Shown: piece after piece, positions 2,847-55,295 of the stretch | Numbering within the stretch: position 1 is the stretch's first letter | Layout: the number at the start of each line of letters is the position of its first letter | Virus record (IMG/VR): IMGVR_UViG_3300045988_171585 | Coordinates: 1-57,195 of that record | Length of the DNA stretch: 57,195 bases | Direction: 5' to 3' (one strand) | Origin: a virus | Made by a program: the position numbers and the translations under genes | Notes under the pieces: model-generated | Seen by the model: only the letters and a program-made list of their open reading frames with translations | What the model was told of the DNA's origin: nothing | Databases searched by the model: none

Positions 2847-3005
2847 TGATTTTCATAAAAAAAAGTGTACTCTTTTAAAGAATACACAAAGCATTATTCA
2901 TAATCCATTCTCATAAGTACAAGGCACATACTCACTACAACATAATTTTAAAAAAATTTAATGTGGAGAATAAACCATCGATGCAGATTTTCTGCACCCA
3001 TATAC

Positions 3006-3034
3006 ATAATAGCATACTATTTATAATAAGTCAA
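3006..3034 (-). promoter_or_regulatory. sigmaA-type promoter (minus)
   Basis: Reverse complement: ttgact-N17-tattat. Confidence 0.5.
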
Positions 3035-3044
3035 GAGTTTATTG

Positions 3045-3076
3045 GAAAAAAATACACCCATCAACTAAGATGGGTG
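3045..3076. terminator. Bidirectional rho-independent terminator
   Basis: Hairpin acacccatc/gatgggtgt flanked by an A-run and a T-run. Confidence 0.55.
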
Positions 3077-3186
3077 TTTTATCAAAAAAATGATTAAATT
3101 GGACTGAGAAAACACCAACTTTTAAAGCAAGTGTTTTTCAGCACAAACCAAGCAGATGAGTATTCCTTGGTCGGAATACAATTAGT

Positions 3187-3215
3187 ATTATAGCAGATGA
3201 TTAGTGTTTTGTCAA
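3187..3215 (-). promoter_or_regulatory. Consensus sigmaA promoter TTGACA-N17-TATAAT (minus)
   Basis: Reverse complement reads ttgacaaaacactaatcatctgctataat. Confidence 0.65.
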
Positions 3216-3255
3216 TATGTTTTTGGTTGATTTGTAGGATAGTGTAGAATAGGGT

Positions 3256-3350
3256 TTTGAGAATTTTAATTTTGCTAGAGCCCTTGCCCCGGGCTGGGGG
3301 GCGTGTTTTGGTATATACCCCAGCCCCACGCCTAAGTTAGATCTTTTTTT
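3256..3350 (+). ncRNA. Candidate small RNA with GC-rich 8-bp stem (ggctgggg/ccccagcc) and U-tract
   Basis: Upstream -10 tagaat (3244-3249) with ttggtt -35; GC-rich hairpin in an AT-rich genome followed by tcttttttt; no ORF. Confidence 0.35.
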
Positions 3351-3369
3351 CTTTGTTGTAAAAAAACTA

Positions 3370-3398
3370 TTGACTTTTATTTTAAAAAGTAGTATAAT
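3370..3398 (+). promoter_or_regulatory. sigmaA promoter TTGACTTTTAT-N-TATAAT
   Basis: ttgact 3370-3375, 17-bp spacer, tataat 3393-3398. Confidence 0.7.
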
Positions 3399-3431
3399 TA
3401 ATACATACAAAGGAAAGGAAGAAAAAAAGAA

Positions 3432-3659
3432 ATGAAAACAACAAAAAAACAATTGGTCGACTTTGCCACTTCAGTAAATGCGATCGACTTAACAAATGCC
3501 GACAGTGAAGAAGTCAACAACATTAGAAAAAGCGACGATATAAAAGAGGTTAGTTATGCGGTCGGTGTTTATGGTGTGATTGCGTGGCTAGGTGTTGGTA
3601 AGAGTGGCAAATATTACTACATACACGCTAGAAACACTAATTTATTTATTGTTATGTAG
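3432..3659 (+). CDS. hypothetical protein
   Basis: ORF with aggaaaggaag RBS. Confidence 0.5.
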   Translation: MKTTKKQLVDFATSVNAIDLTNADSEEVNNIRKSDDIKEVSYAVGVYGVIAWLGVGKSGKYYYIHARNTNLFIVM

Positions 3660-3666
3660 GTAAAAC

Positions 3667-3882
3667 ATGTATACAATTAACATATATAAATTCACACTAT
3701 TAAAAGTCGGCAAAAGAAAAAAGAAATATTTCGAGTTAATAGATAGTTATAAACATATTAATACTAAAGAGTTAAGTAAACAAGCCATTGAAGTTAAAAA
3801 AATATATTATGACAATCATTATTACATTGATATAGTAGATGAAAAGACTAAAAATGAAATGATAAAGAAAGGGATGAAGTGA
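3667..3882 (+). CDS. hypothetical protein
   Basis: ORF. Confidence 0.4.
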   Translation: MYTINIYKFTLLKVGKRKKKYFELIDSYKHINTKELSKQAIEVKKIYYDNHYYIDIVDEKTKNEMIKKGMK

Positions 3883-3884
3883 AA

Positions 3885-4010
3885 TGATAAGAGCATTTAT
3901 TAATATTAATAAGGTTTTAATCGTATTACCGATAAGACTAGCAATAGCAACAATAAAAGCTGTTGTTTTGCTACCTTTGGCGGTTATCAAAAGTTTTGGG
4001 GGTGCTAAAT
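3885..4010 (+). CDS. small membrane peptide (41 aa)
   Basis: ATG after gaaaggga; hydrophobic product MIRAFININKVLIVLPIRLAIATIKAVVLLPLAVIKSFGGAK. Confidence 0.35.
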
Positions 4011-4011
4011 A

Positions 4012-4236
4012 ATGGACGATAAAAAAGTAAAAAAGCTATATGAAAGAATAAGAAAAGGGGAAAACATTAAAGAGATAGAGGGAAAACGCGTGCAAGTGTA
4101 CGCCTACACCTACATATATTTACATAAGAGATATACCAAAGAAATGATAAGAGCATTAAAAATATGGTGTAATACACCGTTAACGGAACAAAAAGAGGTT
4201 GAAGAGTTAATACTAAAAGTGATTGAAAATGATTAA
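4012..4236 (+). CDS. hypothetical protein
   Basis: ORF followed by terminator hairpin 4244-4275. Confidence 0.45.
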   Translation: MDDKKVKKLYERIRKGENIKEIEGKRVQVYAYTYIYLHKRYTKEMIRALKIWCNTPLTEQKEVEELILKVIEND

Positions 4237-4243
4237 AAAATAA

Positions 4244-4275
4244 AAGGTATAAAAAACAAATATACCTCTTTTCGC
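4244..4275 (+). terminator. Rho-independent terminator
   Basis: aggtata...tatacct stem followed by cttttc. Confidence 0.45.
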
Positions 4276-4747
4276 CGTGGTGTTCTGTTTTACAATAGCT
4301 TTACACTAAGAAGATGTAAACTAAATGTAAAGTGATGTAAACTTTACACAATTATTATATAGTGATCTGTTTTTTAGTGATAGCTTAACAGATGCGTTCT
4401 AACGCCCTTTTTTTTGACTTCTAAGCGACTTTTCTTTTTTCTGCTATTGTTACACTATTTTACTTTTAACCGCTTACTATGAATAAGTAAATAAGGGAAG
4501 AAAAAGGATAACAAAGTCTCTTCATATTTTTTTATACCATTTTTCATACGATTATTTTAACAACCAAAAGGGAACGTGTCTTTATAGTAAAATTTTTTAA
4601 AATTTTTTCCAATAACTCGGACATTTTTTTGAAAAATTGATTTTTTATTTTTTAGAAATTAATAGCGAACATGGTAGCGAACAATCGTTTGTGTTTTATA
4701 TCAAACATCTGTTCGTTTTTTAGGTATAAAAAAAGGCGAACATCTGT

Positions 4748-6159: not shown

Positions 6160-6483
6160 ATGCCATTTATTATGATTGGAAAAGAAAAATATAACATTGA
6201 TTATACATTATATAGCAACGACATGCGACTTATACTTTTTAAATATAATTCAAGAAAAAGATTAAAAAAAGAGTTAAGAAGTGTATTTAATACGAATAGT
6301 TTTGTTGTTTTAGAAAAACGACTTGATAAATATAATTTAAAATTAGAATTGATTATGAAAACAAGAGCTTTTGATTATTATGAGATAACAACGAAAAATA
6401 TTTATGGTGGTCGTGTTAAAATGAATAATGACGGTATAAAAATTAAATTTAATTTAAGTAGTGCGAAAGGAAACGAAGAATAA
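6160..6483 (+). CDS. hypothetical early protein
   Basis: RBS aaaggagag, ATG. Confidence 0.55.
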   Translation: MPFIMIGKEKYNIDYTLYSNDMRLILFKYNSRKRLKKELRSVFNTNSFVVLEKRLDKYNLKLELIMKTRAFDYYEITTKNIYGGRVKMNNDGIKIKFNLSSAKGNEE

Positions 6484-6836
6484 TGACAAAAATAAATAGA
6501 AATATTAATTATCCTGAAATTGATGAGGGTATGGTTATTCAATTTGATTTTATTAATATGGATAATGAAGACAATTTTAGACTTTATTATGTTGCAACAC
6601 CTTTTAATGGTTTTCTACCTATGATTAGACCTATTATAATGGGGCTTGATAGTTATAATAAAACGCTTGAGGATATTAATAAAGAATTAGAAGAGATTAA
6701 GACGACATGTTTTTTAATGGAAGTACATGAAACTTATAATTATTATGAGATATACTCAAATAGTAGAATTACGAAAGATGTTACCAAAAGAGCAATAGCT
6801 CCAAAAATAGATATTATGAATATTAAAAGGAATTAA
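6483..6836 (+). CDS. hypothetical early protein
   Basis: Translationally coupled (taATGa). Confidence 0.55.
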   Translation: MTKINRNINYPEIDEGMVIQFDFINMDNEDNFRLYYVATPFNGFLPMIRPIIMGLDSYNKTLEDINKELEEIKTTCFLMEVHETYNYYEIYSNSRITKDVTKRAIAPKIDIMNIKRN

Positions 6837-19728: not shown

Positions 19729-20002
19729 TGAGGAAATACAAGAGATTTTAGATGAATTACAACTAGTTAGAGCCGAGGTGTTAAAACCTAAAGCGAAAAG
19801 ATTATTTGATGCAATAATGTGTATTGCTGATGATAGAGATAAATATCTGAAAGAAAATCAAAAATTAAAAGAAGATATAAATTTTTGTTTACATTCGATT
19901 AAACAAGAAATGGAAATGTCAAAAGACGAAAGAACAAGAAAAGAAATGTCTACTTGTTATTATATACTAAGAGGTGGAATAAATGAAAGTAGATATTTAT
20001 AA
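19721..20002 (+). CDS. hypothetical protein
   Basis: Start refined to the ATG at 19721 after gaggtggaaagca. Confidence 0.45.
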   Translation: MNDEEIQEILDELQLVRAEVLKPKAKRLFDAIMCIADDRDKYLKENQKLKEDINFCLHSIKQEMEMSKDERTRKEMSTCYYILRGGINESRYL

Positions 20003-20528
20003 TACAGATAAGAAATACAATATCATTTATGCAGATCCACCATGGAGTTATAAAGATAAAGCATTAGCAGGAGATCGGGGGGCTTGTTGTAAATATGATG
20101 TCATGACAATAGAAGATATAGAAAATCTACCTATAAAAGATATTTCTGCTAATGATTGTGTATTATTCATGTGGGTTACAATGCCTAAATTAAATGAATG
20201 TTTTGATGTGATTAAAAAATGGGGGTTTGAATATAAAACTTGTGCTTTCACTTGGATTAAGCAAAATAAAAAAAGCAATAGTTTATTTTGGGGTATGGGT
20301 AGTTGGACTAGAGCAAATGCTGAATTATGTTTAATTGCTACTAAAGGAAAACCTAAAAGACAATCTGCAAAAGTACATAGTGTAATAATGAGTAAGATAA
20401 GAGAACATTCAAGAAAACCTGATGAAACTAGAGATAGAATAGTAGAATTGTGTGGTGATATACCTAGAATAGAATTATTTGCGAGACAATCAGTTGATGG
20501 CTGGGATTGTTGGGGTAATGAAGTATAA
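19983..20528 (+). CDS. MT-A70 family DNA N6-adenine methyltransferase
   Basis: IIYADPPWSY (DPPW) motif. Confidence 0.75.
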   Translation: MKVDIYNTDKKYNIIYADPPWSYKDKALAGDRGACCKYDVMTIEDIENLPIKDISANDCVLFMWVTMPKLNECFDVIKKWGFEYKTCAFTWIKQNKKSNSLFWGMGSWTRANAELCLIATKGKPKRQSAKVHSVIMSKIREHSRKPDETRDRIVELCGDIPRIELFARQSVDGWDCWGNEV

Positions 20529-20566
20529 ATTTTACAAAAATATAAAGAAATAATAGGAGATAAATA

Positions 20567-21295
20567 ATGATAGATTTAAGACAAGGCGATTGTTTAGAAA
20601 TAATGAAGGATATACCTGACAAATCAATAGATATGATACTATGCGATTTGCCCTATGGCACCACTGCTTGTAAATGGGATGTGGTTATTCCTTTTGAATC
20701 ATTATGGGAACAATATAATAGAATAATAAAAGATAATGGTGCAATAGTTTTATTTAGTAAACAACCTTTTACAACTGAATTAATACATAGTAATTTAAAG
20801 AATTTTAAATATAGTTTAGTATGGAAAAAAGATAATCACGACAATCCACTAATGGCTAAAAAAAGATTTCTAAATATAACAGAAGATATAAATATATTTT
20901 ATAAAAAACAATGTGTTTATAACCCACAAGGAATTATAAAAGTAAATAAAATTACAAAACAGGGCAGAGGAGAAAGTTTGTCACAAAAAAATACGAGAAA
21001 AATGGAATATTTACAAGAATATACTAATTACCCTAGAAATATTTTAGAGTTTAAAAGAGATTTGCCAAATATTCACCCAACCCAGAAGCCAGTTGCACTT
21101 CTTGAATATTTAATTAAAACATATACAAATGAAAATGAAACAGTATTAGATAATTGTATGGGGTCTGGAAGTACAGGAGTAGCTTGTATGAATACTAATA
21201 GAAATTTTATAGGAATAGAGTTAGATGAAAAATACTTTGAAATAGCAAAAGAACGAATAGAAAAAGAACAAAATAAATGGGAGGATTTAAACTAA
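20567..21295 (+). CDS. DNA methyltransferase (N6-adenine/N4-cytosine, beta class)
   Basis: DLPYG motif IV, HPTQKP, C-terminal NCMGSGSTG SAM-binding motif. Confidence 0.7.
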   Translation: MIDLRQGDCLEIMKDIPDKSIDMILCDLPYGTTACKWDVVIPFESLWEQYNRIIKDNGAIVLFSKQPFTTELIHSNLKNFKYSLVWKKDNHDNPLMAKKRFLNITEDINIFYKKQCVYNPQGIIKVNKITKQGRGESLSQKNTRKMEYLQEYTNYPRNILEFKRDLPNIHPTQKPVALLEYLIKTYTNENETVLDNCMGSGSTGVACMNTNRNFIGIELDEKYFEIAKERIEKEQNKWEDLN

Positions 21296-21813
21296 TGCCT
21301 CAACAGATAAAAACATGCAAAAGAAAAACACACGACGATGAGTTCTTTACAATGTATAAAGATTGTGTTAGAGAACTTCATAAGTACGATTTAAGAAATA
21401 AAAAGATAATTTGTCCTTGTGATAATAAAGATAGTAATATTTATAAATATTTAAAAGATTGTTACTATGATGTAAAATATGATAACAAAGAATGGAGAAA
21501 TATTGATTATTCAAAATACGATTTAGTAATAACCAATCCCCCATTTAGCCAAGTAAGAGAATTTATAAGACATTTAGTTAATAAAAAAATAGATTTTATA
21601 ATAGTTGTTAGTGATGTTTTGAGGTATAGTATCGCAAAAGGTAAAACTGATTTTGGGATAGTATTGTACAAAGGTTGGGATGCTCAAAAGTTTTATAGAC
21701 CGGATGGTAGTATACAAGCGGTACATTGTGGATGGATTTCTACCATTCCTGATGATTGGGGTGAAAACAAAATAATGAAAGAAGTTGACGATAATGGAAT
21801 TTTGGATAAATAA
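21295..21813 (+). CDS. putative small DNA methyltransferase (NPPF motif)
   Basis: LVITNPPFSQ; start refined to the ATG at 21295 after gggaggat. Confidence 0.4.
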   Translation: MPQQIKTCKRKTHDDEFFTMYKDCVRELHKYDLRNKKIICPCDNKDSNIYKYLKDCYYDVKYDNKEWRNIDYSKYDLVITNPPFSQVREFIRHLVNKKIDFIIVVSDVLRYSIAKGKTDFGIVLYKGWDAQKFYRPDGSIQAVHCGWISTIPDDWGENKIMKEVDDNGILDK

Positions 21814-22135
21814 TAGGCGATGGACCATAGAAGAGGTCAACAGTAATTGGTTATTAACAGAATATAAAAAAGAAAACGATAAAGGTGTGTATTGTTTTGG
21901 TTTAACGAAATATAATGAGCAAGCTATCTATATAAACACTGAGGTACATAAAGATGTTAAAAAGCAAACTTTGTATCACGAGTTAATGCATTGTTATTTA
22001 TGGAACTATGCTCAAAACTTTGATGAAGTAAGTGAGGAATTATTATGTGATATATCAGCAAATAGTCACGATATCATACATAAAATTGTAGAAGCATACT
22101 TTGAGTTGAAAGAGAGTAATAATAATGGATTTTAA
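21785..22135 (+). CDS. ImmA/IrrE-family zinc metallopeptidase (standalone)
   Basis: AIYINTEV...QTLYHELMHC HEXXH-like core typical of DUF955/ImmA. Confidence 0.55.
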   Translation: MTIMEFWINNRRWTIEEVNSNWLLTEYKKENDKGVYCFGLTKYNEQAIYINTEVHKDVKKQTLYHELMHCYLWNYAQNFDEVSEELLCDISANSHDIIHKIVEAYFELKESNNNGF

Positions 22136-24899
22136 TGAACTAATAAACAATCGTTTATGGGGATTTGATTTTGAGGTAACAAAGTATGATTGGCTACTTG
22201 TATTAATAAAATATTCAGATAAAACAAAAATAACTTTCCATAATGATTGTGCAGATGATATATTTAGTTTTATTGAAAAATATGATCCCATTTTAATAGG
22301 ACATAATGCACGTTATTATGACCAGTATATTTTAAAAGGTATTGAATCGGGTTTTTCAGTAGAAGAAGTTAAAAACATTAATGACTATATTATTAATGGT
22401 GGACAAGGCTTTGAATTACAATATGATTATGTACAACTCCCCCCGATATGGGATACTATACAAGATGTAGTTCCCCCAAAAAGTTTAAAAGAAATAGAAG
22501 CGAATCTTTTAATGGATATTACCGAATCTACGGTTAGTTTCGATATAGACCACCCATGGAACGAGCAAGAATATAATGAAATGCTATATTATTGTACAAA
22601 AGATGTTGAAGCACTGTTTCCTTTATTTGAAGCGAGAAAAGGTTATTTTAAAACCAAGTACGATTTATGTGTGTTATCGAGCATCGACCCCGCATATAAT
22701 ATCGGTCTTACCAATGCAAAACTTTGTGCGAAGTTTTTAGAAGCAAAAAAAGTAGACCGAGATGATGAAAGGGAATATATTATACCATCTACAATTGATA
22801 TAAATTATGTTCCTAAAGAGATATTAAAATTTTTTGAGAGAGTACATGATAAAACAATTTCAGATGAAGAACTATTTACTAGTAAATTAGAATTTGATTT
22901 TCATGGTATGCCATCTGTGTTTGCGTCAGGTGGGGCTCATGGTGCGTTGCCTAACTACAGATATGATGAAAAATTAAATCCTAATATAGTGGTCATTAAT
23001 GTAGACTATTCTAGTCTGTATCCTCATCTACTTGCTCTCCCAGAATACAATTTTATTTCTCGAAATATTAAAGATAAAAATAAATACTATAATACTCTTC
23101 AACGAAGATTACAATTAAAACATGAAGGTAAAAAAGAAGAACAGTTACCACTTAAGCTTATACTTAACACTACTTATGGTTGTCAGAATAACAAATATAA
23201 TGATTTATACGATCCTAAAGGAGCAAGAAATACTTGTTGGACGGGTCAGTTGTTATTAGCATCTATGACTGAAGAAGTATTTCAAATAGGTGGAGTAAAA
23301 TTAATCCAAATAAACACAGATGGTTTGATGATTGAATTACCACGAGAGAAGTTACCAGAGTATTATGAGGTTTGTAATAAGTTCTCTGAGAGAGTAAAGA
23401 TAGGTGTTGAGTATGATATAATTCATAAAATAATACAACGTGACGTGAATAACTACATTATGGTTTACGGAGAAGAAGGACATTTAAGTATTAAAGCGAA
23501 AGGTGGATGTTTTGCTAGTTTACCTAAATTAACTATAGAAGAGGATGGAAGTGTTTCTAGTAAATATAAACCTGACTTTAAAGCTAATTCTTTAGCAATA
23601 GTTTCGGAAGCACTTGCAAAATATTTATTATTTGATACGCCCATAGAGGAAACGATATTAAACGATGATACAACACACAAGTATCAACTCGTGTCTCATC
23701 TTGGCTCAACCTATGAAAAATGTGTTCAAGAAAGTGCGAACGGAGACATCCTATTACAAAAAAATAATAGAATATATGCTGGGCTAACACCTAGTGGGAA
23801 GATAGTAAAAGTGAAACCAGATGGAAGAAGAGATTCATTGGCTAACCAGCCACCAAATCCAATAATAGATAATGGTAATAAATGCACCATTGACCAAATT
23901 AATAAACAGTGGTATATTAAACTTGCTACCCAATGGGCTAATGATTTCCTAGGAATCAAGAGATTAACAGAATATAAAAAAGATGAACTACTAACCATGG
24001 CTAAAGACCTAGGTTTAGAAGTAGATAAAAAGACTAAAAAGGATGAACTAATAAAAATGATAGAAGAAAGAAATGAGGTAAAAGAAATGGCTACAAAAAA
24101 AGTAGAAACAAATGAAGAAACAAAAACTATGACTATTTATGAAAAAATAGCGAAAATGACAAAAGAAATTAGAGAACACGATTTTGTAATGGATTGTGTA
24201 AACCCCGGTAATCTTGGTGGAAAAGAATATGCATCAATAGGTCAGTACTACAATCTATTACATAACTTATGTGATAAATATCATTTATTATTTAGATGGG
24301 ATGTTACGAACCTGGAGTATTTTGAAAAGGACGTATTCAAACCTACCGGTAAAATGCCTTCTAATGTGGCTGTGGTATGTTGTAAAGCAACATTTATTGA
24401 TATTGACGCCACACAATATGATAGAATTAAAAGCGATGAAAACTTTGCTTATGCTGTAAATAGTATATATAGCATGACTTATAGTGCTATGGCAGGTGGT
24501 AGTGATATTGCTGACAAATCAGTTTCGGGAGCTAGTACTTTAGCATTTAGAAATTGGTTTGATAAAAACTTCACACCAAAATATATGAATGCTATAGAAG
24601 AAGAAATAACAGAGTCATCTGAAGAAAAAACTGAAGCTCCTAAAATACCAGCGTATATTCCACCACAAAAGAAAGAAGAAATAAAAGAAGAAGTTGTAAG
24701 TACTAAACAAAATAGCACAGATGAAGATATTAAAAGAGTTATTGATACTATTATGAAAATAAGAGATATGAGTAATAACCCTGAATATGGTAAATCAACA
24801 TTAAATACGATCATGACAACAGAGATAACAGCAGCAGATTTACTTTCAATAGAATTAAAATTAAATAATAAGTTAGATGAGTTAGGAGGTAATAAATAA
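22125..24899 (+). CDS. Family B DNA polymerase with 3'-5' exonuclease domain
   Basis: Exo I FDFEV, Exo II HNARYYDQ, Exo III YCTKDV; Pol A VDYSSLYP, Pol B KLILNTTYG, Pol C-like INTDG. Confidence 0.8.
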   Translation: MDFNELINNRLWGFDFEVTKYDWLLVLIKYSDKTKITFHNDCADDIFSFIEKYDPILIGHNARYYDQYILKGIESGFSVEEVKNINDYIINGGQGFELQYDYVQLPPIWDTIQDVVPPKSLKEIEANLLMDITESTVSFDIDHPWNEQEYNEMLYYCTKDVEALFPLFEARKGYFKTKYDLCVLSSIDPAYNIGLTNAKLCAKFLEAKKVDRDDEREYIIPSTIDINYVPKEILKFFERVHDKTISDEELFTSKLEFDFHGMPSVFASGGAHGALPNYRYDEKLNPNIVVINVDYSSLYPHLLALPEYNFISRNIKDKNKYYNTLQRRLQLKHEGKKEEQLPLKLILNTTYGCQNNKYNDLYDPKGARNTCWTGQLLLASMTEEVFQIGGVKLIQINTDGLMIELPREKLPEYYEVCNKFSERVKIGVEYDIIHKIIQRDVNNYIMVYGEEGHLSIKAKGGCFASLPKLTIEEDGSVSSKYKPDFKANSLAIVSEALAKYLLFDTPIEETILNDDTTHKYQLVSHLGSTYEKCVQESANGDILLQKNNRIYAGLTPSGKIVKVKPDGRRDSLANQPPNPIIDNGNKCTIDQINKQWYIKLATQWANDFLGIKRLTEYKKDELLTMAKDLGLEVDKKTKKDELIKMIEERNEVKEMATKKVETNEETKTMTIYEKIAKMTKEIREHDFVMDCVNPGNLGGKEYASIGQYYNLLHNLCDKYHLLFRWDVTNLEYFEKDVFKPTGKMPSNVAVVCCKATFIDIDATQYDRIKSDENFAYAVNSIYSMTYSAMAGGSDIADKSVSGASTLAFRNWFDKNFTPKYMNAIEEEITESSEEKTEAPKIPAYIPPQKKEEIKEEVVSTKQNSTDEDIKRVIDTIMKIRDMSNNPEYGKSTLNTIMTTEITAADLLSIELKLNNKLDELGGNK

Positions 24900-30958: not shown

Positions 30959-31315
30959 TTACTCATCCTTTAGTTTATCATAGCATTCTCTAATAAAAGC
31001 TTCTTCACTTTCAAAAAGTCCGTTATGAACACCAAGTCTATCTACGGCTTCATCGTAATCTGATAAAAATACAAATATACTTGCATACTCGTGTCTAGTA
31101 TGAGGAACACCTCTCCTTAGATCGCCAGCAAATCTACATACTTCAAATCGCCACTGTTCCATATCTTTTTTTAAAGAAGCGAGTTCATTTTTATCTATTT
31201 TCTTTTCCAAAGGTTTTATTTTTCTGTCTATAAGCTTATTTACAATCGCTGAAAACGCACCCAGTACACTTGATATTGTAAGTAAGAGATTTAAATATTC
31301 TTTAATATTTTCCAT
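30959..31315 (-). CDS. Membrane protein with BhlA/UviB-like N-terminus (holin-like?)
   Basis: N-terminal TM LLLTISSVLGAFSAIV followed by a charged coiled-coil. Confidence 0.35.
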   Translation of the reverse strand: MENIKEYLNLLLTISSVLGAFSAIVNKLIDRKIKPLEKKIDKNELASLKKDMEQWRFEVCRFAGDLRRGVPHTRHEYASIFVFLSDYDEAVDRLGVHNGLFESEEAFIRECYDKLKDE

Positions 31316-32115
31316 TACGCTTTAATTAAATTTCCGTTTTTAAGTTTATTTAATAGTTCAGTATTTTGTTCAGCTGAACCATGATAATTGTTTATTCCGT
31401 TTACTTCAGCAAGTCTTGTACGATAGTTGTAAGAACTATCTATTCCTATTTCGTTTAAAGCATCCGCAATTGATACGCCGGTGTATGATGTATTTGATAA
31501 ATAATCGTGTTTTGGTTTTAATAATTCATTAACCCTAGCTTGAACTTCGCCATATCTATCACCAAGTGCTTTCTTTCTATCATCACCGTTGCCATAGATA
31601 CCACTTATAACCTCTTGTGCTAATTCATCAATTGATTTTTGAGGTATAACCTCTTTAGTATATCTTCTAACATCTTCTTTAGATACACCAAAATATGAGT
31701 ATGGGTCTGTCCAATATGAACTATTACCTCTTCCTTCGTCGCCTTTATATGTTCCGTTTTTTCTATTATCTAAATGAACATAATTACCATCAATATTAGC
31801 AATACCATTTAATTCACCCAAGTCGTTAGCAACACAGCAAACAATACCTGCCGGTATAACTTCGCCATTTTCATCATAATATACACAATCAGCCGCTAAC
31901 CCTTCTGAATGACGACCAGCAAAACCTCCGATTTGTATATCATATGATGGGCATCTATATCCACTAGATATAATACATTTACTAGCATTTAATTTTGAAA
32001 AAATATGTTCCATTTTTTCAACTAGTTCTCTTTCAATTTTAATATTTCCACAATGCTGACAGACAAATTCTGTACTATGAAAATGTTCAGTTATTTTAAT
32101 TGAGTCCGTTATCAT
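31315..32115 (-). CDS. Endolysin: Peptidase_M15 (L-Ala-D-Glu/D-Ala-D-Ala peptidase) + CW_7 cell-wall-binding repeat
   Basis: SGYRCPSYDIQIGGFAGRHSEGLAADC M15 signature; ISGIYGNGDDRKKALGDRYGEVQARVNELL CW_7 motif. Confidence 0.8.
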   Translation of the reverse strand: MITDSIKITEHFHSTEFVCQHCGNIKIERELVEKMEHIFSKLNASKCIISSGYRCPSYDIQIGGFAGRHSEGLAADCVYYDENGEVIPAGIVCCVANDLGELNGIANIDGNYVHLDNRKNGTYKGDEGRGNSSYWTDPYSYFGVSKEDVRRYTKEVIPQKSIDELAQEVISGIYGNGDDRKKALGDRYGEVQARVNELLKPKHDYLSNTSYTGVSIADALNEIGIDSSYNYRTRLAEVNGINNYHGSAEQNTELLNKLKNGNLIKA

Positions 32116-32290
32116 TATTATTTCCTCCTTCTTTTTTAACAGATTGGGCTCCTAGAAAGAACCCTATTACAGTTACTACCACTGATTGTAATTCTTGTGG
32201 CACTGACGATTTAACCACAATACAATAAGCAAACAATAGCATAGTAATAACTGTTATGAACGATTTAATATCATCCCAACATTTCTTCAT
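32096..32290 (-). CDS. Holin
   Basis: 64 aa, two TM helices, charged C-terminus, overlaps the endolysin start. Confidence 0.65.
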   Translation of the reverse strand: MKKCWDDIKSFITVITMLLFAYCIVVKSSVPQELQSVVVTVIGFFLGAQSVKKEGGNNNDNGLN

Positions 32291-32347
32291 TTGATATCCT
32301 CCTTTTTATTTCTATCTTACTATATTATATCATATTTAACTTTTTCT

Positions 32348-32376
32348 GTAAAAATAGTTGACTTATATTGTAGAAT
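32348..32376 (+). promoter_or_regulatory. sigmaA promoter TTGACTTATAT-N-TATTAT driving a noncoding region
   Basis: Nearly identical (25 bp) to the minus-strand promoter at 55501-55529. Confidence 0.55.
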
Positions 32377-32399
32377 ATGATATTATTGTTTTGTGAGGA

Positions 32400-32955
32400 G
32401 AAATCTTCGCAAGTTTACCATTACAAATGAAACTAATACTTGCTATCTATTTTATAGGTAGCATAGAGTAGATAATTATCATAACCTGTTCTATGAGGTT
32501 GACTATATAAATCAATAGAACAATGGGAAAATATAGTCCTTATCTATTCTATGGTACTTATGAGAGTAAGTATCGAACTTAAACATATTAATTTCATGAT
32601 AATGCTATCTATTTTATAGGTAGCATAGAGTAAATAATATAACTCAATTGGTAGAGTGTGGAGCGTACGCAATTCTTAAAAACCAGGACACGAGAGTTAC
32701 AGGTTCAAATCCTGTTGTTATTTACTCTATGGTGCTTATAAATACTAGTAGTCTATAAATGTGTTCCATAATGGAGTAAGTCAAGTTCCACTTGATGTAG
32801 AAATCATCTTTATAGACAATAAGCACGGTTAGTAGGTAACGTGTTGGTTATTTACCCAAACGGGAAATAAGTATGAGCTGGTGAGCTAATATTTAAAACT
32901 AGTTGTGATTGGTTCAAATCCAATCCGTATTTGTTTCCCTAAATATTTACATATT
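32400..32955 (+). ncRNA. Candidate large structured ncRNA with two tRNA T-arm-like elements
   Basis: No ORF; promoter upstream; terminator downstream; 33-bp direct repeat at 32444 and 32607; GGTTCAAATCC T-arm motifs at 32699-32715 and 32908-32924 with pairing acceptor-like ends but no canonical anticodon arm. Confidence 0.35.
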
Positions 32956-32957
32956 AA

Positions 32958-32995
32958 AAAATCAGGATTTAATTATCCTGATTTTATTTTATTTC
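32958..32995. terminator. Bidirectional terminator
   Basis: aatcagga tttaatta tcctgatt with A-run 5' and T-run 3'. Confidence 0.65.
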
Positions 32996-33184
32996 TTCTT
33001 CTACATATAGTTCATTTAGTTTGTTATCATCAAAATTATCTGCTAGAAATATTATAGATGTGTAATAAGGTTTATGTTCTTCTTCATTTTCAGAAGCAGG
33101 TATATATAAATCATTTATATCTCTTATTTGTTTATTTTCATCTGCAATTAATATTTTCTTTTCGCCATATTTTCTTATTTCCAT
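32984..33184 (-). CDS. hypothetical protein
   Basis: ORF. Confidence 0.45.
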   Translation of the reverse strand: MEIRKYGEKKILIADENKQIRDINDLYIPASENEEEHKPYYTSIIFLADNFDDNKLNELYVEEEIK

Positions 33185-53328: not shown

Positions 53329-53357
53329 ACAAATGTATTATTGTCAATATAAAAAAA
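53329..53357 (-). promoter_or_regulatory. sigmaA promoter TTGACA-N17-TAAAAT (late operon)
   Basis: Reverse complement: ttgacaataatacatttgtatgctaaaat. Confidence 0.5.
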
Positions 53358-53403
53358 AATACCAATATTATGGTATTCATTCAACTCGGAGAGATTTTCT
53401 ACT

Positions 53404-53478
53404 TGGAGGTGGTAGTAGGAATCGAACCTACAATAAAAGTTTTGCAGACTTTCGCCTTAACCCTTTGGCTATACCACC
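53404..53478 (-). tRNA. tRNA-Cys (GCA) with encoded CCA
   Basis: Reverse complement folds as a cloverleaf: acceptor GGTGGTA/TACCACC, anticodon stem AAAGT/ACTTT with loop CTGCAAA, T-arm GTAGG-TTCGATT-CCTAC, 3' TCCA. Confidence 0.8.
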
Positions 53479-53479
53479 A

Positions 53480-54310
53480 TATAGTTTTGGATGAGACTTA
53501 TTAAAAACCCATCCATAATACAAGTATACGTACCTAAAACCTGAAAAAAATAATAAAAGGAATCTTAGGTACATCAAGAAAGGAGCATTACTCGCCATCC
53601 ATGTCGGGGGTGAAATGGCTAATTAGCTATCTGAAATAATTACGTGAGATAGTCCTCCTATTAATTTTTATAAGACAATCGTTGTTCGGTCACTAGGGAG
53701 TATTAACCCAAAAACAAGTTGCGAACTTATTTCCTTAATACCCAGGGTGGTAACCGTCTTATACCTAGACTGGAATCATTACCAGCAATTCTTACACACG
53801 GTTGGGTCATAATTTATTACGTAAAATTATGTAAAAACCTTATTAATCTTTTTCATATTTCATATTTACCAAACATGCGGATTTGTGCAAGAATACCAAG
53901 TTCTAACCTTATAGAATATCACTATTCGTCAACCGCACGATTATCACTTAATTGGTAGTCTCATTTTTCCCTCACCCATACCAATAGGGGTAGTACTAAT
54001 GAGTTTTATAATTGCCCTATACATGAGCACGTTTTATAGTTGTGATCGGTTAGGCTTGTACGATACGACATTCATATAAAAACCACTATTTTCTCATTCC
54101 CTAGTTTCTAGGTCCCAGTATATATTTTACAATACACACCAACTCTATCCTCCATAAGTCTGCACTAATGGATAAAAAGCATTGAGAAAATATCCTTACT
54201 ATATTGTGTTATAGTCTTTCATAAGGTTCTCAAGTAATTATTTCAAATAGCTAATATGCGAGTAATCCTATATTGAGTGTTGTGTAATAGAAATATAATC
54301 CCTATCACAA
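53480..54310 (-). ncRNA. Candidate large noncoding RNA upstream of tRNA-Cys
   Basis: About 830 nt without ORFs on the transcribed strand; promoter at 54315-54343; locally GC-richer block 53560-53830. Confidence 0.3.
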
Positions 54311-54314
54311 TTCA

Positions 54315-54343
54315 ATAATAACATATAATACATAAAAAGTCAA
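54315..54343 (-). promoter_or_regulatory. sigmaA promoter TTGACTTTTTAT-N-TATTAT (minus)
   Basis: Reverse complement: ttgactttttatgtattatatgttattat. Confidence 0.5.
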
Positions 54344-54345
54344 TA

Positions 54346-55194
54346 TTATTTTTGCACTCTATTACCATTATCATCAACATACATCCAGTGATAACCACCA
54401 CAAGTTAAATCTTCAGGGCGATTGACAGCTTCATAGAAATATTTTAGTGTTCCACCCACTGTTTTTTCAAGCCATGCTTTAGCGGCGACAGCATTTTCAA
54501 ATATCATATTATTTTCTATACATTTTACTTTTAATCTTTCATCTTTTATCATTTTAGACACATTATAATTCTCGTCATTGTATAGTCTAAATGTATATCC
54601 ATGTGTTGAGAATCTTCCAGCATCCCCAGCCAAATAATGATTTACAATCTGAGGAGATAATCCAACATCTTTGGCACATTCCATTATGCTCCCATATAAC
54701 TTCCCTGTTTCGCAGCAAACAACTTTAATAGCACAATCCTTACCTTTATCAAGTTCTCCTTGTACTTTCTTAACTGTTTCTGCTTGTCTTTCGGCTTGTT
54801 TTTTAATAAGTTTATCTCTTTCTCTAACCCTACCTCTAGTTGGTTGTTGAACACCCTGAAGTATTTTTACAAATTTTATATCAAATTGAATTGTATCGGA
54901 TAGATAAGTAACAGTTAGCATATATTGTCTATTTCTACGAAGAGTAACTTGTATTTCTTGTGACGCACCTTCTTCAACATTATGCATAAGTTTTGTAGTC
55001 TCCGTACCAGCGTAAAATTCATCTAATATTGATCCGATTTCTAAAAACGTTAAATCTGCCGAGTTTGAGATATAGAATTTGTGATAGTTTTTTAATTTTT
55101 CAGCCTGCTGTTTGCCAAATATCTCAAGAGCCTCTTCATGTATTCTTTGTCTTTTACGTTCTCTTTTTTTAATTTCTGCTTTCGTTAAACCCAT
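54346..55194 (-). CDS. Homing-endonuclease-like DNA-binding protein (two NUMOD/IENR-type repeats, no recognisable nuclease core)
   Basis: Repeats VVCCETGKLYGSIMECAKDVGLSPQIVNHYLAG...GYTFRLY and VKCIENNMIFENAVAAKAWL...GGYHWMYVDD; start refined to the ATG at 55194 after tggagg. Confidence 0.5.
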   Translation of the reverse strand: MGLTKAEIKKRERKRQRIHEEALEIFGKQQAEKLKNYHKFYISNSADLTFLEIGSILDEFYAGTETTKLMHNVEEGASQEIQVTLRRNRQYMLTVTYLSDTIQFDIKFVKILQGVQQPTRGRVRERDKLIKKQAERQAETVKKVQGELDKGKDCAIKVVCCETGKLYGSIMECAKDVGLSPQIVNHYLAGDAGRFSTHGYTFRLYNDENYNVSKMIKDERLKVKCIENNMIFENAVAAKAWLEKTVGGTLKYFYEAVNRPEDLTCGGYHWMYVDDNGNRVQK

Positions 55195-55295
55195 ATACAA
55201 TCCTCCATATATAACAAAAGAAAAGGTATGATAACCTTTCCCCCTATCAATGAACAAAACAATGTGTAATGGAATAATCTTCCCAAACACAATTT

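Follow-up and report, generated by a model that had tools for sequence, protein, structure and literature searches.

ROOL and GOLLD RNAs are found in phages, near tRNA islands, and the linker of GOLLD can carry tRNAs (PMC12286853). Arrays of noncoding RNA (ncRNA) associated with UG27 in gut phages are composed of units of about 150 nt which conserve structure while their sequences are diverse, each combining a basal hairpin with a variable central one (bioRxiv 10.64898/2026.09.22.753630). In YrlA, a tRNA-like domain is carried on a stem, where the protein-binding stem occupies the anticodon position and a closed stem-loop forms the acceptor (PMC4201824). RNase III of B. subtilis acts on duplexes of 10–36 bp whose partners lie up to 505 nt apart, and U-G wobbles are enriched in the distal box (PMC11780869). 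The DNA analysed here (the window) comprises positions 1–57,195 of the viral IMG/VR record IMGVR_UViG_3300045988_171585. At 32358–32995 of its plus strand, sequence signals delimit what is predicted to be a noncoding promoter-to-terminator unit of about 600 nt, independent of its neighbors, within which lie repeated modules of a three-helix RNA scaffold, each bracketing a different insert (the cargo).

Each module is an open, Y-shaped three-way junction of the helices P1, P2, and P3 with a variable cargo at the tip of P2. P1 is a sequence-conserved hairpin of 7–9 bp (GCUAUCU..AGGUAGC) and P3 a second sequence-conserved hairpin (GGUGCUU..AAGCACU), while P2, a continuous and perfectly paired stem of about 15 bp, varies freely in sequence and always keeps its pairing. 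A first-pass annotation of the window had recorded a 33-bp direct repeat in this unit. The repeat proved longer than claimed, spanning 36 nt at 32441–32476 and 32603–32638 with 35 of 36 positions identical (the 35-mer pattern occurs twice, against none expected from shuffles). A second, weaker repeat at 32529–32561 and 32707–32739 had been overlooked and represents the matching 3′ arm: in an inverted-repeat search, each copy of the direct repeat, which comprises P1 and the 5′ strand of P2, is complementary to the weaker repeat downstream, with arms of 22–25 nt lying 64–80 nt apart. What had been missed, then, is the larger structure to which the direct repeat contributes one arm, a conserved scaffold of three helices that encloses each cargo and is found again in hundreds of phage contigs. 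A 19-mer of the repeat, GGTAGCATAGAGTARATAA, is present in 27 IMG/VR contigs with inserts differing in each. In these contigs the 5′ arm reads GCUAYCU-loop-AGGUAGC AUAGAGUAGAUA and the 3′ arm UAUCUAUUCUAU GGUGCUU-loop-AAGCACU, and the inserts between them (26–142 nt) are mutually unrelated. Neighboring copies on the same contigs possess wholly different P2 stems in which pairing is kept, for example UGAUACUGAAUAAUAA/UUAUUAUUUAGUAUCA and CACCUAGAUAGUAGGU/ACUUAUUAUCUAGGUG.

The family was sampled with a descriptor consisting of a loose GGUAG-type anchor, 11/11 pairing plus a junction pair, and a GGUGC-type anchor, which was applied to 1.23 Mb of phage contigs from gut and rumen (169 sources), with reversed sequences as the control. 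This search returned 291 modules versus one in the reversed control, corresponding to 235 unique modules, 76 P2 types (distinct 12-mers), and 170 cargo similarity clusters. Furthermore, an 18-mer scan of metagenomes yielded more than 120 contigs among the matches listed, from rumen and human-gut assemblies, again with different inserts in each. In a gap-free alignment of 50 distinct modules, 98.2% of cells are paired and 21 of 26 pairs show changes in both partners; covariation extends to all 12 scored pairs of P2, none of 500 shuffles was as good, and no slid register came close. The non-Watson-Crick pairs in P2 comprise 88 G.U or U.G pairs versus two A.C or C.A pairs. The structure is therefore formed by RNA on the plus (module) strand, and neutral double-stranded inverted repeats are ruled out. 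The scaffold is a real, strand-specific, and modular RNA structure family which is widespread in phages. A covariance model of the scaffold (R1) was discarded in favor of the descriptor search, being unable to span the variable cargo and mis-assigning the 3′ strand.

The geometry of the junction is narrowly constrained. The contiguous length of P2 is 14–16 bp in 187 of the 235 modules (range 13–18 bp, mode 15), and P2 together with a 7-bp flanking hairpin measures about 22 bp. Counted from the junction, the seventh base pair is G.U in 26 of the 76 P2 types, and its 5′-strand base is a purine in 91%. Three junction nucleotides change together, namely the terminal base of GGUAG(C/U) and the initial bases of P1 and P3 (G/A in both). 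Conservation of the flanks is limited to U at −1 (71%) and A at +1 (78%). A fourth closing helix, which would complete a cloverleaf, was rejected, as pairing of the flanks is no better than with shuffled partners. A rod conformer joining the P1 3′ strand to the P3 5′ strand is possible in the consensus, and the hairpins are preferred because the rod loses pairs where P1 covaries (locus L014). Kissing of the P1 and P3 loops (UUAU/AUAA) was likewise set aside, with no covariation by eye in L010 and L020.

Within the window, the unit is made up of the following features:

32358–32386, plus strand: sigma-70-type promoter by consensus match, TTGACT (32358–32363), 17 nt, TG-extended TATTAT (32381–32386); 10/12 with TG
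32390–32413, plus strand: 5′ leader hairpin UUGUGAGGAG..CUUCGCAA, in the minimum free energy (MFE) and centroid folds; 94% conserved in L006
32441–32575, plus strand: module 1, with P1 32442–32450/32454–32462, P2 32462–32475/32540–32553, and P3 32553–32561/32566–32574
32476–32539, plus strand: cargo K, with hairpins 32483–32487/32496–32500 and 32501–32508/32531–32538
32575–32602, plus strand: linker between modules 1 and 2; 85–100% conserved in L006, L011, L005, L078, and L155
32603–32827, plus strand: module 2, with P1 32604–32612/32616–32624, P2 32624–32639/32716–32731, and P3 32732–32739/32819–32826
32633–32723, plus strand: tRNA-like cargo, with D-arm 32642–32657, T-arm 32699–32715, and the P2 tip at the acceptor position
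32740–32818 (79 nt), plus strand: domain inserted in the P3 loop, MFE stem GUCUAUAAA/UUUAUAGAC with inner hairpins
32832–32939, plus strand: module 3 with a degenerate scaffold, P1-like hairpin 32832–32840/32847–32855 and 14-bp stem 32862–32875/32926–32939
32958–32995, no strand assigned: bidirectional intrinsic terminator, 11-bp stem 32958–32985, A-run 5′, T-run 3′

Module 1 adopts the Y fold when folded alone, in agreement with the family covariation and the family flanks. In addition to its two hairpins, cargo K contains a loop-loop pseudoknot of 7 bp (32488–32494 with 32515–32521); across seven distinct sequences from relatives, 100% of its cells are paired, eight of 20 pairs are compensated, and none of 500 shuffles was as good.

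The P3 helix of module 2 is split by the inserted domain, which is 90–96% identical in L006, L009, L071, L077, and L118, while the same scaffold in L048 has a simple P3. The cargo of this module and that of module 3 each contain one of the two T-arm motifs noted at first pass. Both copies of GGTTCAAATCC (32702–32712 and 32911–32921) are indeed hairpin loops, closed by ACAGG/CCTGT (32699–32715) and GATTGG/CCAATC (32907–32925), and both stems covary in relatives; the 11-mer alone is not significant, since two or more matches with at most one mismatch arise in 21 of 100 shuffles. The Rfam tRNA model RF00005 scores 43.4 bits at 32633–32723 versus a gathering threshold of 29, with contributions from the acceptor, D-arm, and T-arm. 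The D-arm, ACUC-AAUUGGUA-GAGU, is canonical and invariant, the T-arm reads ACAGG-UUCAAAU-CCUGU, and what is required to form the tRNA elbow is present. Three of five T-stem pairs covary among five relatives, and in L136 the D-loop G18 and the T-loop U55 are altered together.

The remainder of the cargo departs from tRNA. A domain of about 40 nt (32658–32698) replaces the anticodon arm, with 33 nt in the RF00005 alignment where a 15-nt arm is expected, and no canonical anticodon stem (5 bp, 7-nt loop, U33, purine 37) is found, as the first reading had also concluded. The acceptor-like pairing AATAATA/TGTTATT proposed in that reading is real but constitutes merely the distal 7 bp of the 16-bp stem 32624–32639/32716–32731. 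The acceptor is thus the tip of a continuous stem and not a free 7-bp helix with single-stranded leader and trailer, and no CCA is encoded. The central domain is invariant in three relatives (37 nt) while the stems change, which is therefore not decay. This domain includes an 8-nt palindrome, GCGUACGC (32663–32670), which becomes GGCUAGCC in L136; such a change, which keeps self-complementarity where pairing within one molecule is impossible, hints at dimerization.

The cargo of module 3 is a smaller tRNA-like structure composed of the hairpin AGCU-GGUG-AGCU (32876–32887) and the T-arm at 32907–32925. The module folds with a z score of −5.6, and its homologue in L111 (7108–7175) exhibits compensatory T-stem changes and a canonical P3. 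Another cargo, in L091 at about 5695 on the plus strand, has the T-arm GUAGG UUCGAAU CCUAC and is otherwise unlike the tRNA-like cargos of the window. Cargos with a T-arm seem to have more than one origin.

The view of the locus as an autonomous noncoding unit on the plus strand is borne out by its promoter and terminator matches, by the lack of any open reading frame (ORF) of more than 50 amino acids (aa) in 32291–32983, and by a far better fold of the plus strand (−179.5 kcal/mol, z −7.8) versus the minus strand (−133.6 kcal/mol, z −4.2). The promoter had been placed at 32348–32376; it is present, with the best match slightly further downstream as listed, and its position predicts an RNA 5′ start near 32393. 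Its sequence is unchanged in the relative L006. The terminator was called correctly and is considered bidirectional because an A-run precedes the stem and a T-run follows it. The flanking genes are all on the minus strand and comprise an M15/CW_7 endolysin (31315–32115), a putative holin of 64 aa, and, from 32984 up, the tail genes; the unit is antisense to both neighbors, as are the corresponding units of L006 and L011. Given its own promoter and terminator, the RNA itself would therefore be the product of the unit. Within the phage, a search for sequences on which the unit could act as antisense gave only chance matches of up to 15 nt. A divergent minus-strand promoter (32352 to 32324; TTTACA, 17 nt, TATAAT, 11/12, with TG) faces the holin and lysin genes, and 32324–32386 is a back-to-back pair of this promoter and that of the RNA unit.

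Across the family, modules are intergenic, do not overlap ORFs, and are mostly co-oriented with both neighboring genes. Over half lie in arrays of two to four according to the descriptor count, and a looser search found five in L043. A tRNA gene is located within 500 nt of 48 of the 291 modules, compared to about 5% of sequence, and on the same strand in 47 of these 48 cases. Genes for the large terminase, portal, HNH endonuclease, glycosyltransferase, and lysin are frequent neighbors, and no reverse transcriptase, TROVE, or other RNA-binding candidate for a linked protein partner was found among the genes commonly neighboring modules. At the syntenic lysin/tail locus the sets of modules differ, with K, the tRNA-like, and the mini-tRNA-like cargo in the window and L006 versus another cargo plus K in L011, L155, and L078, and the segment between cargos behaves as a repeat of about 97 nt. 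One cargo class is found with different P2 types.

The five modules of L043 all differ in their P2 stems and cargos. They belong to a gene-free array of 1.4 kb (2967–4401) which runs from tRNA-Met and tRNA-Gln through the five modules to tRNA-Leu and a terminator. The unrelated contigs L043 (3448–3560) and L019 (about 6470–6580) share, between modules, a conserved noncoding stretch of about 110 nt (GGUAAAACAGC...CAGUAUUUCAUACUAAUAUGAAA) which may be another small RNA. In L040 (562–2181), a 17-kb contig of a phi29-like podovirus, a module with a very short cargo is placed between a 118-aa gene and the phi29-like major capsid gene, 94 nt upstream of the latter; the scaffold is therefore present in small podovirus-like genomes too. 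Genuine matches in genomes are gut or rumen contigs of metagenome-assembled genomes, mostly labeled Bacilli, Tenericutes, Coprobacillus, or Clostridia, and a few odd labels (Methanobrevibacter, Paludibacteraceae) are probably mis-binned phage contigs. Six of 20 genome matches (Plesiomonas, Spirochaetaceae, Eubacteriales, Flavobacteriaceae, and Amphibacillus records) as well as locus L069 were discarded as chance 18-mers with no scaffold. The scaffold motif occurs in none of 50,697 deposited phage genomes, and deposited phages show no similarity to the region, to the surrounding 10 kb, or to the scaffold arm.

Among known RNA families, neither ROOL (RF03087), GOLLD (RF01998), Y RNA, nor any other Rfam family beyond tRNA matches 32200–33100 at E ≤ 10. 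Of the first interpretation, which had offered a tRNA-like structure, a degenerate tRNA, or a ROOL-like RNA and had proposed Infernal as a check, the tRNA-like structure thus stands and the ROOL-like RNA does not. Related loci gave no match either, in 14 scanned in gathering mode and six in E-value mode. As the gathering-mode scan of the whole window overlooked a true ROOL RNA, the Rfam negatives rest on the E-value-mode scans only. This ROOL RNA (RF03087; 53630–54250, minus strand; 150.1 bits, E 3e-33 in E-value mode) is part of a unit at 53350–54345 on the minus strand, directly upstream of the terminase gene, with a promoter-like site at about 54342, ROOL, tRNA-Cys(GCA) at 53478–53404, and a terminator at about 53390–53350; presumably it is the "first" noncoding unit of the first-pass annotation. 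A 314-aa ORF beside it (54346–55290, minus strand) may be a homing endonuclease; its I-HmuI NUMOD-like match is weak and falls below the Pfam cut-off (E 4e-5).

The modules resemble ROOL and GOLLD in being phage-encoded, highly structured, close to tRNAs, and present in rumen and gut Firmicute phages, and the phage of the window carries a ROOL as well. Unlike them, they are short autonomous modules of about 110–230 nt, also found singly within operons, and the conserved part is a small three-helix scaffold as opposed to a fold of 500–800 nt. With the UG27 arrays they share tandem units, conserved structure with diverse sequence, and the gain and loss of units between close relatives. However, no reverse transcriptase or accessory ORFs were found, P1 and P3 conserve their sequence, and complex folds, some of them tRNA-like, make up the cargos. 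As in YrlA, a stem of distant strands carries a D- and T-arm mimic without a decoding anticodon loop; in contrast to YrlA, the scaffold stem lies at the acceptor position, most cargos are not tRNA-like, and there is no match to Rfam Y RNAs. YrlA is accompanied by a Ro60 gene nearby, and no Ro60/TROVE protein is encoded among the scanned window proteins or the genes commonest beside modules. Beyond such general resemblance, none of the testable defining features of the known families was found. No description of the scaffold was found in Rfam 15 or the searchable literature, and the family is apparently a new and so far unannotated kind of phage RNA element. It may be present unnamed in large lists of candidates, such as that of PMC10690425, which includes a candidate RNA sometimes called tRNA-Arg.

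The scaffold is tentatively proposed to serve as a processing and stabilizing cassette for small RNAs, a reading drawn by analogy with RNase III signals and given a rough probability of 0.35. Known RNase III processing signals include rRNA processing stalks, the T7 R sites, and the sites in SP82 early mRNAs. Like these signals, the modules place a long-range perfect duplex around a functional RNA, occur between cistrons of phage operons, and would leave hairpins on the flanking RNAs. P2 (13–18 bp) has the uninterrupted long-range duplex of at least 10 bp which characterizes RNase III substrates, and the cassette reading is favored because its fixed length, uninterrupted duplex, and positioned wobble fall within the mapped range of the B. 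subtilis enzyme. A double-strand-specific endonuclease, most plausibly the host RNase III, would measure from the junction and cut P2, thereby freeing the cargo as a stable small RNA with a P2 stub. The upstream RNA would retain P1 as a 3′-terminal cap, and the downstream RNA would retain P3 as a 5′-terminal cap that would protect against the RNase J-type 5′ exonucleases of Firmicutes. Cutting of P2 with terminal caps would account for the intercistronic, tRNA-array, and stand-alone positions alike. The freed cargos would then act in trans, the tRNA-like ones as mimics or decoys and others as pseudoknotted binding modules; the pseudoknot of cargo K and the covariation of the tRNA-like cargo indicate that the cargos are functional RNAs.

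Several considerations weigh against this proposal and the structural evidence beneath it. RNase III sites are not described as having the three-way junction, the two sequence-conserved capping hairpins, and the interchangeable cargos, and cleavage of P2 with the resulting RNA ends is here a prediction. A P2 of 15 bp alone is short for classical RNase III, and coaxial stacking must be assumed. A pure punctuation role would need no sequence conservation of P1 and P3, and the conserved helix sequence together with the covariation of the junction triple suggests a sequence-specific partner. On the structural side, the columns for the P1 5′ strand and the P3 3′ strand in alignment A4 were picked for best pairing, which inflates the pairing percentage; by this procedure, 7/7 pairs are reached in 58 of 75 modules for P1 and 41 of 75 for P3 versus 3.7 and 2.4% at random positions. 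The P2 members had been pre-selected for 11/11 pairing in their first 11 bp, and the strand-specific G.U argument fits single-stranded DNA too.

A sequence-specific partner is the essence of one alternative, in which P1, the junction, and P3 bind one shared host or phage protein and the cargo provides specificity or a decoy target, analogous to the Y RNA stem with Ro60 or the CRISPR repeat with Cas. It appears unlikely, yet it would explain why P1 and P3 are conserved in sequence and not in structure alone, the flanking U and A, the fixed length and positioned G.U of P2, the co-varying junction nucleotides, and a scaffold common to unrelated phage types including the phi29-like podovirus contig. 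No partner gene is linked to the modules, whose neighbors encode terminase, portal, HNH, glycosyltransferase, and lysin proteins, and neither TROVE nor another RNA-binding domain occurs among the scanned window proteins. Assembly of RNA alone, with modules as the blocks of a higher-order complex comparable to those shown for ROOL and GOLLD which is held together by loop-loop contacts between copies, is rather improbable. The 170 mostly unrelated cargo clusters are ill suited to a regular lattice, many modules are single within mRNAs, and only one variant of the palindrome occurs among five sequences. Such assembly would nevertheless agree with the palindrome itself, which stays self-complementary from GCGUACGC to GGCUAGCC without the possibility of an intramolecular hairpin, with the 7-bp loop-loop pairing of cargo K, which could form between molecules, with the genomic niche shared with ROOL and GOLLD near tRNA islands (PMC12286853), and with the ROOL carried by the same phage. 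Improbable, too, is a purely cis-acting mRNA element (an intercistronic stabilizer, processive antiterminator, or translation modulator) in which the cargo is a tolerated loop. The intergenic sense orientation of the modules, their frequent position ahead of terminase and portal genes, and the several which end 10–30 nt before a ribosome-binding site (L012, L016, L017) fit such a role, but the antisense units of the window, L006, and L011 with promoter and terminator of their own, the conserved and covarying classes of cargo, and the arrays of up to five modules without an intervening ORF do not.

The turnover of modules at the lysin/tail locus, the occurrence of one cargo class with different P2 types, and the repeat-like segment of about 97 nt between cargos would also be expected of a mobile or recombining DNA cassette, be it similar to a miniature inverted-repeat transposable element (MITE), attC-like, or a single-strand DNA element with P1 and P3 as end hairpins, whose covariation stems from matched inverted repeats. 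G.T pairs are tolerated in single-stranded DNA. However, mismatches in a MITE are symmetric between strands, whereas the 88 G.T-type versus two A.C-type mismatches found here exclude neutrally drifting double-stranded inverted repeats; the cargos have strand-specific covariation of their own, including tRNA-like folds, the window unit comes with a promoter and a terminator of its own, and no transposase or integrase was seen among the scanned genes nearby. Such a cassette is accordingly quite improbable as the sole explanation, although mobility and RNA function could be compatible. Very unlikely are templates for reverse transcription, whose cargo hairpin would be copied to a short cDNA. The UG27 arrays offer the same array concept with their units of about 150 nt, basal and variable central hairpins, and unit gain and loss (bioRxiv 10.64898/2026.09.22.753630), but the 57-kb window contains no ORF of 380–450 aa, the size of a UG27 reverse transcriptase, and ORFs of at least 250 aa in the window and, in the loci examined, up to about 5 kb from modules give only chance matches to reverse transcriptase motif C (YxDD), the best-placed candidates being a capsid protein, a terminase, and a glycosyltransferase. 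The UG27 boundary motif AUCN7UANAG is close to chance level, in five of 235 modules versus 3.5 expected. Least likely of all, and scarcely credible, are tRNA genes, whether ordinary or in decay, and an attP core with tRNA 3′ halves. Beside the RF00005 score, ARAGORN calls the homologues in L006 and L048 tRNA-Arg(ACG) of 93 nt. This call was rejected since the anticodon stem GGAGC/AUUCU is mismatched and not kept in L063 and L136; in addition, the L006 model has C at position 37 and an unpaired variable arm of 21 nt, the acceptor is buried in the 16-bp stem without an encoded CCA, and the 37 nt at the center stay unchanged in three relatives despite changing stems. With default settings ARAGORN finds no tRNA in the unit, let alone two ordinary ones, its sole call in the window being the tRNA-Cys at 53404–53478, and calls forced by low thresholds or introns (tRNA-Leu, tRNA-Phe) were not credible. 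The attP idea of the first-pass annotation finds no support, as both T-arms lie within long covarying RNA stems and no integrase is present in about 30 scanned early, replication, lysis, and end-region ORFs, a scan outside which most structural ORFs and those below about 130 aa fall.

Elsewhere, the window contains genes for a DNA polymerase, a primase, and a helicase of the phage's own. The polymerase ORF (924 aa; 22125–24899, plus strand) contains an endonuclease VII-like segment at residues 612–650, after the polymerase match, which may be an inserted nuclease domain. Three consecutive short ORFs at 19983–21813 (plus strand) all match DNA methyltransferase families and may represent several enzymes or one methylase gene that is split or frameshifted.

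In a broader sense than the processing cassette, the scaffold may constitute a universal adaptor by which gut and rumen Firmicute phages express, process, and exchange small structured RNAs (at least 170 cargo clusters), including possibly dimerizing tRNA mimics, as decoys or effectors against host systems, a proposal judged to fall only a little short of even odds. If the scaffold is real, an RNA architecture common in gut and rumen phages has been wholly overlooked by current annotation, and many "empty" stretches between genes, as well as arrays beside phage tRNA genes, would find their explanation in it. It would also provide a compact natural scaffold to display folded RNAs and a catalog of well over 100 small RNA folds new to annotation, some of them tRNA mimics, whose targets would likely be host translation, RNA-processing, or defense factors. 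Because the same phage carries both, the scaffold would furthermore offer a simpler and more tractable neighbor to the ROOL and GOLLD problem.

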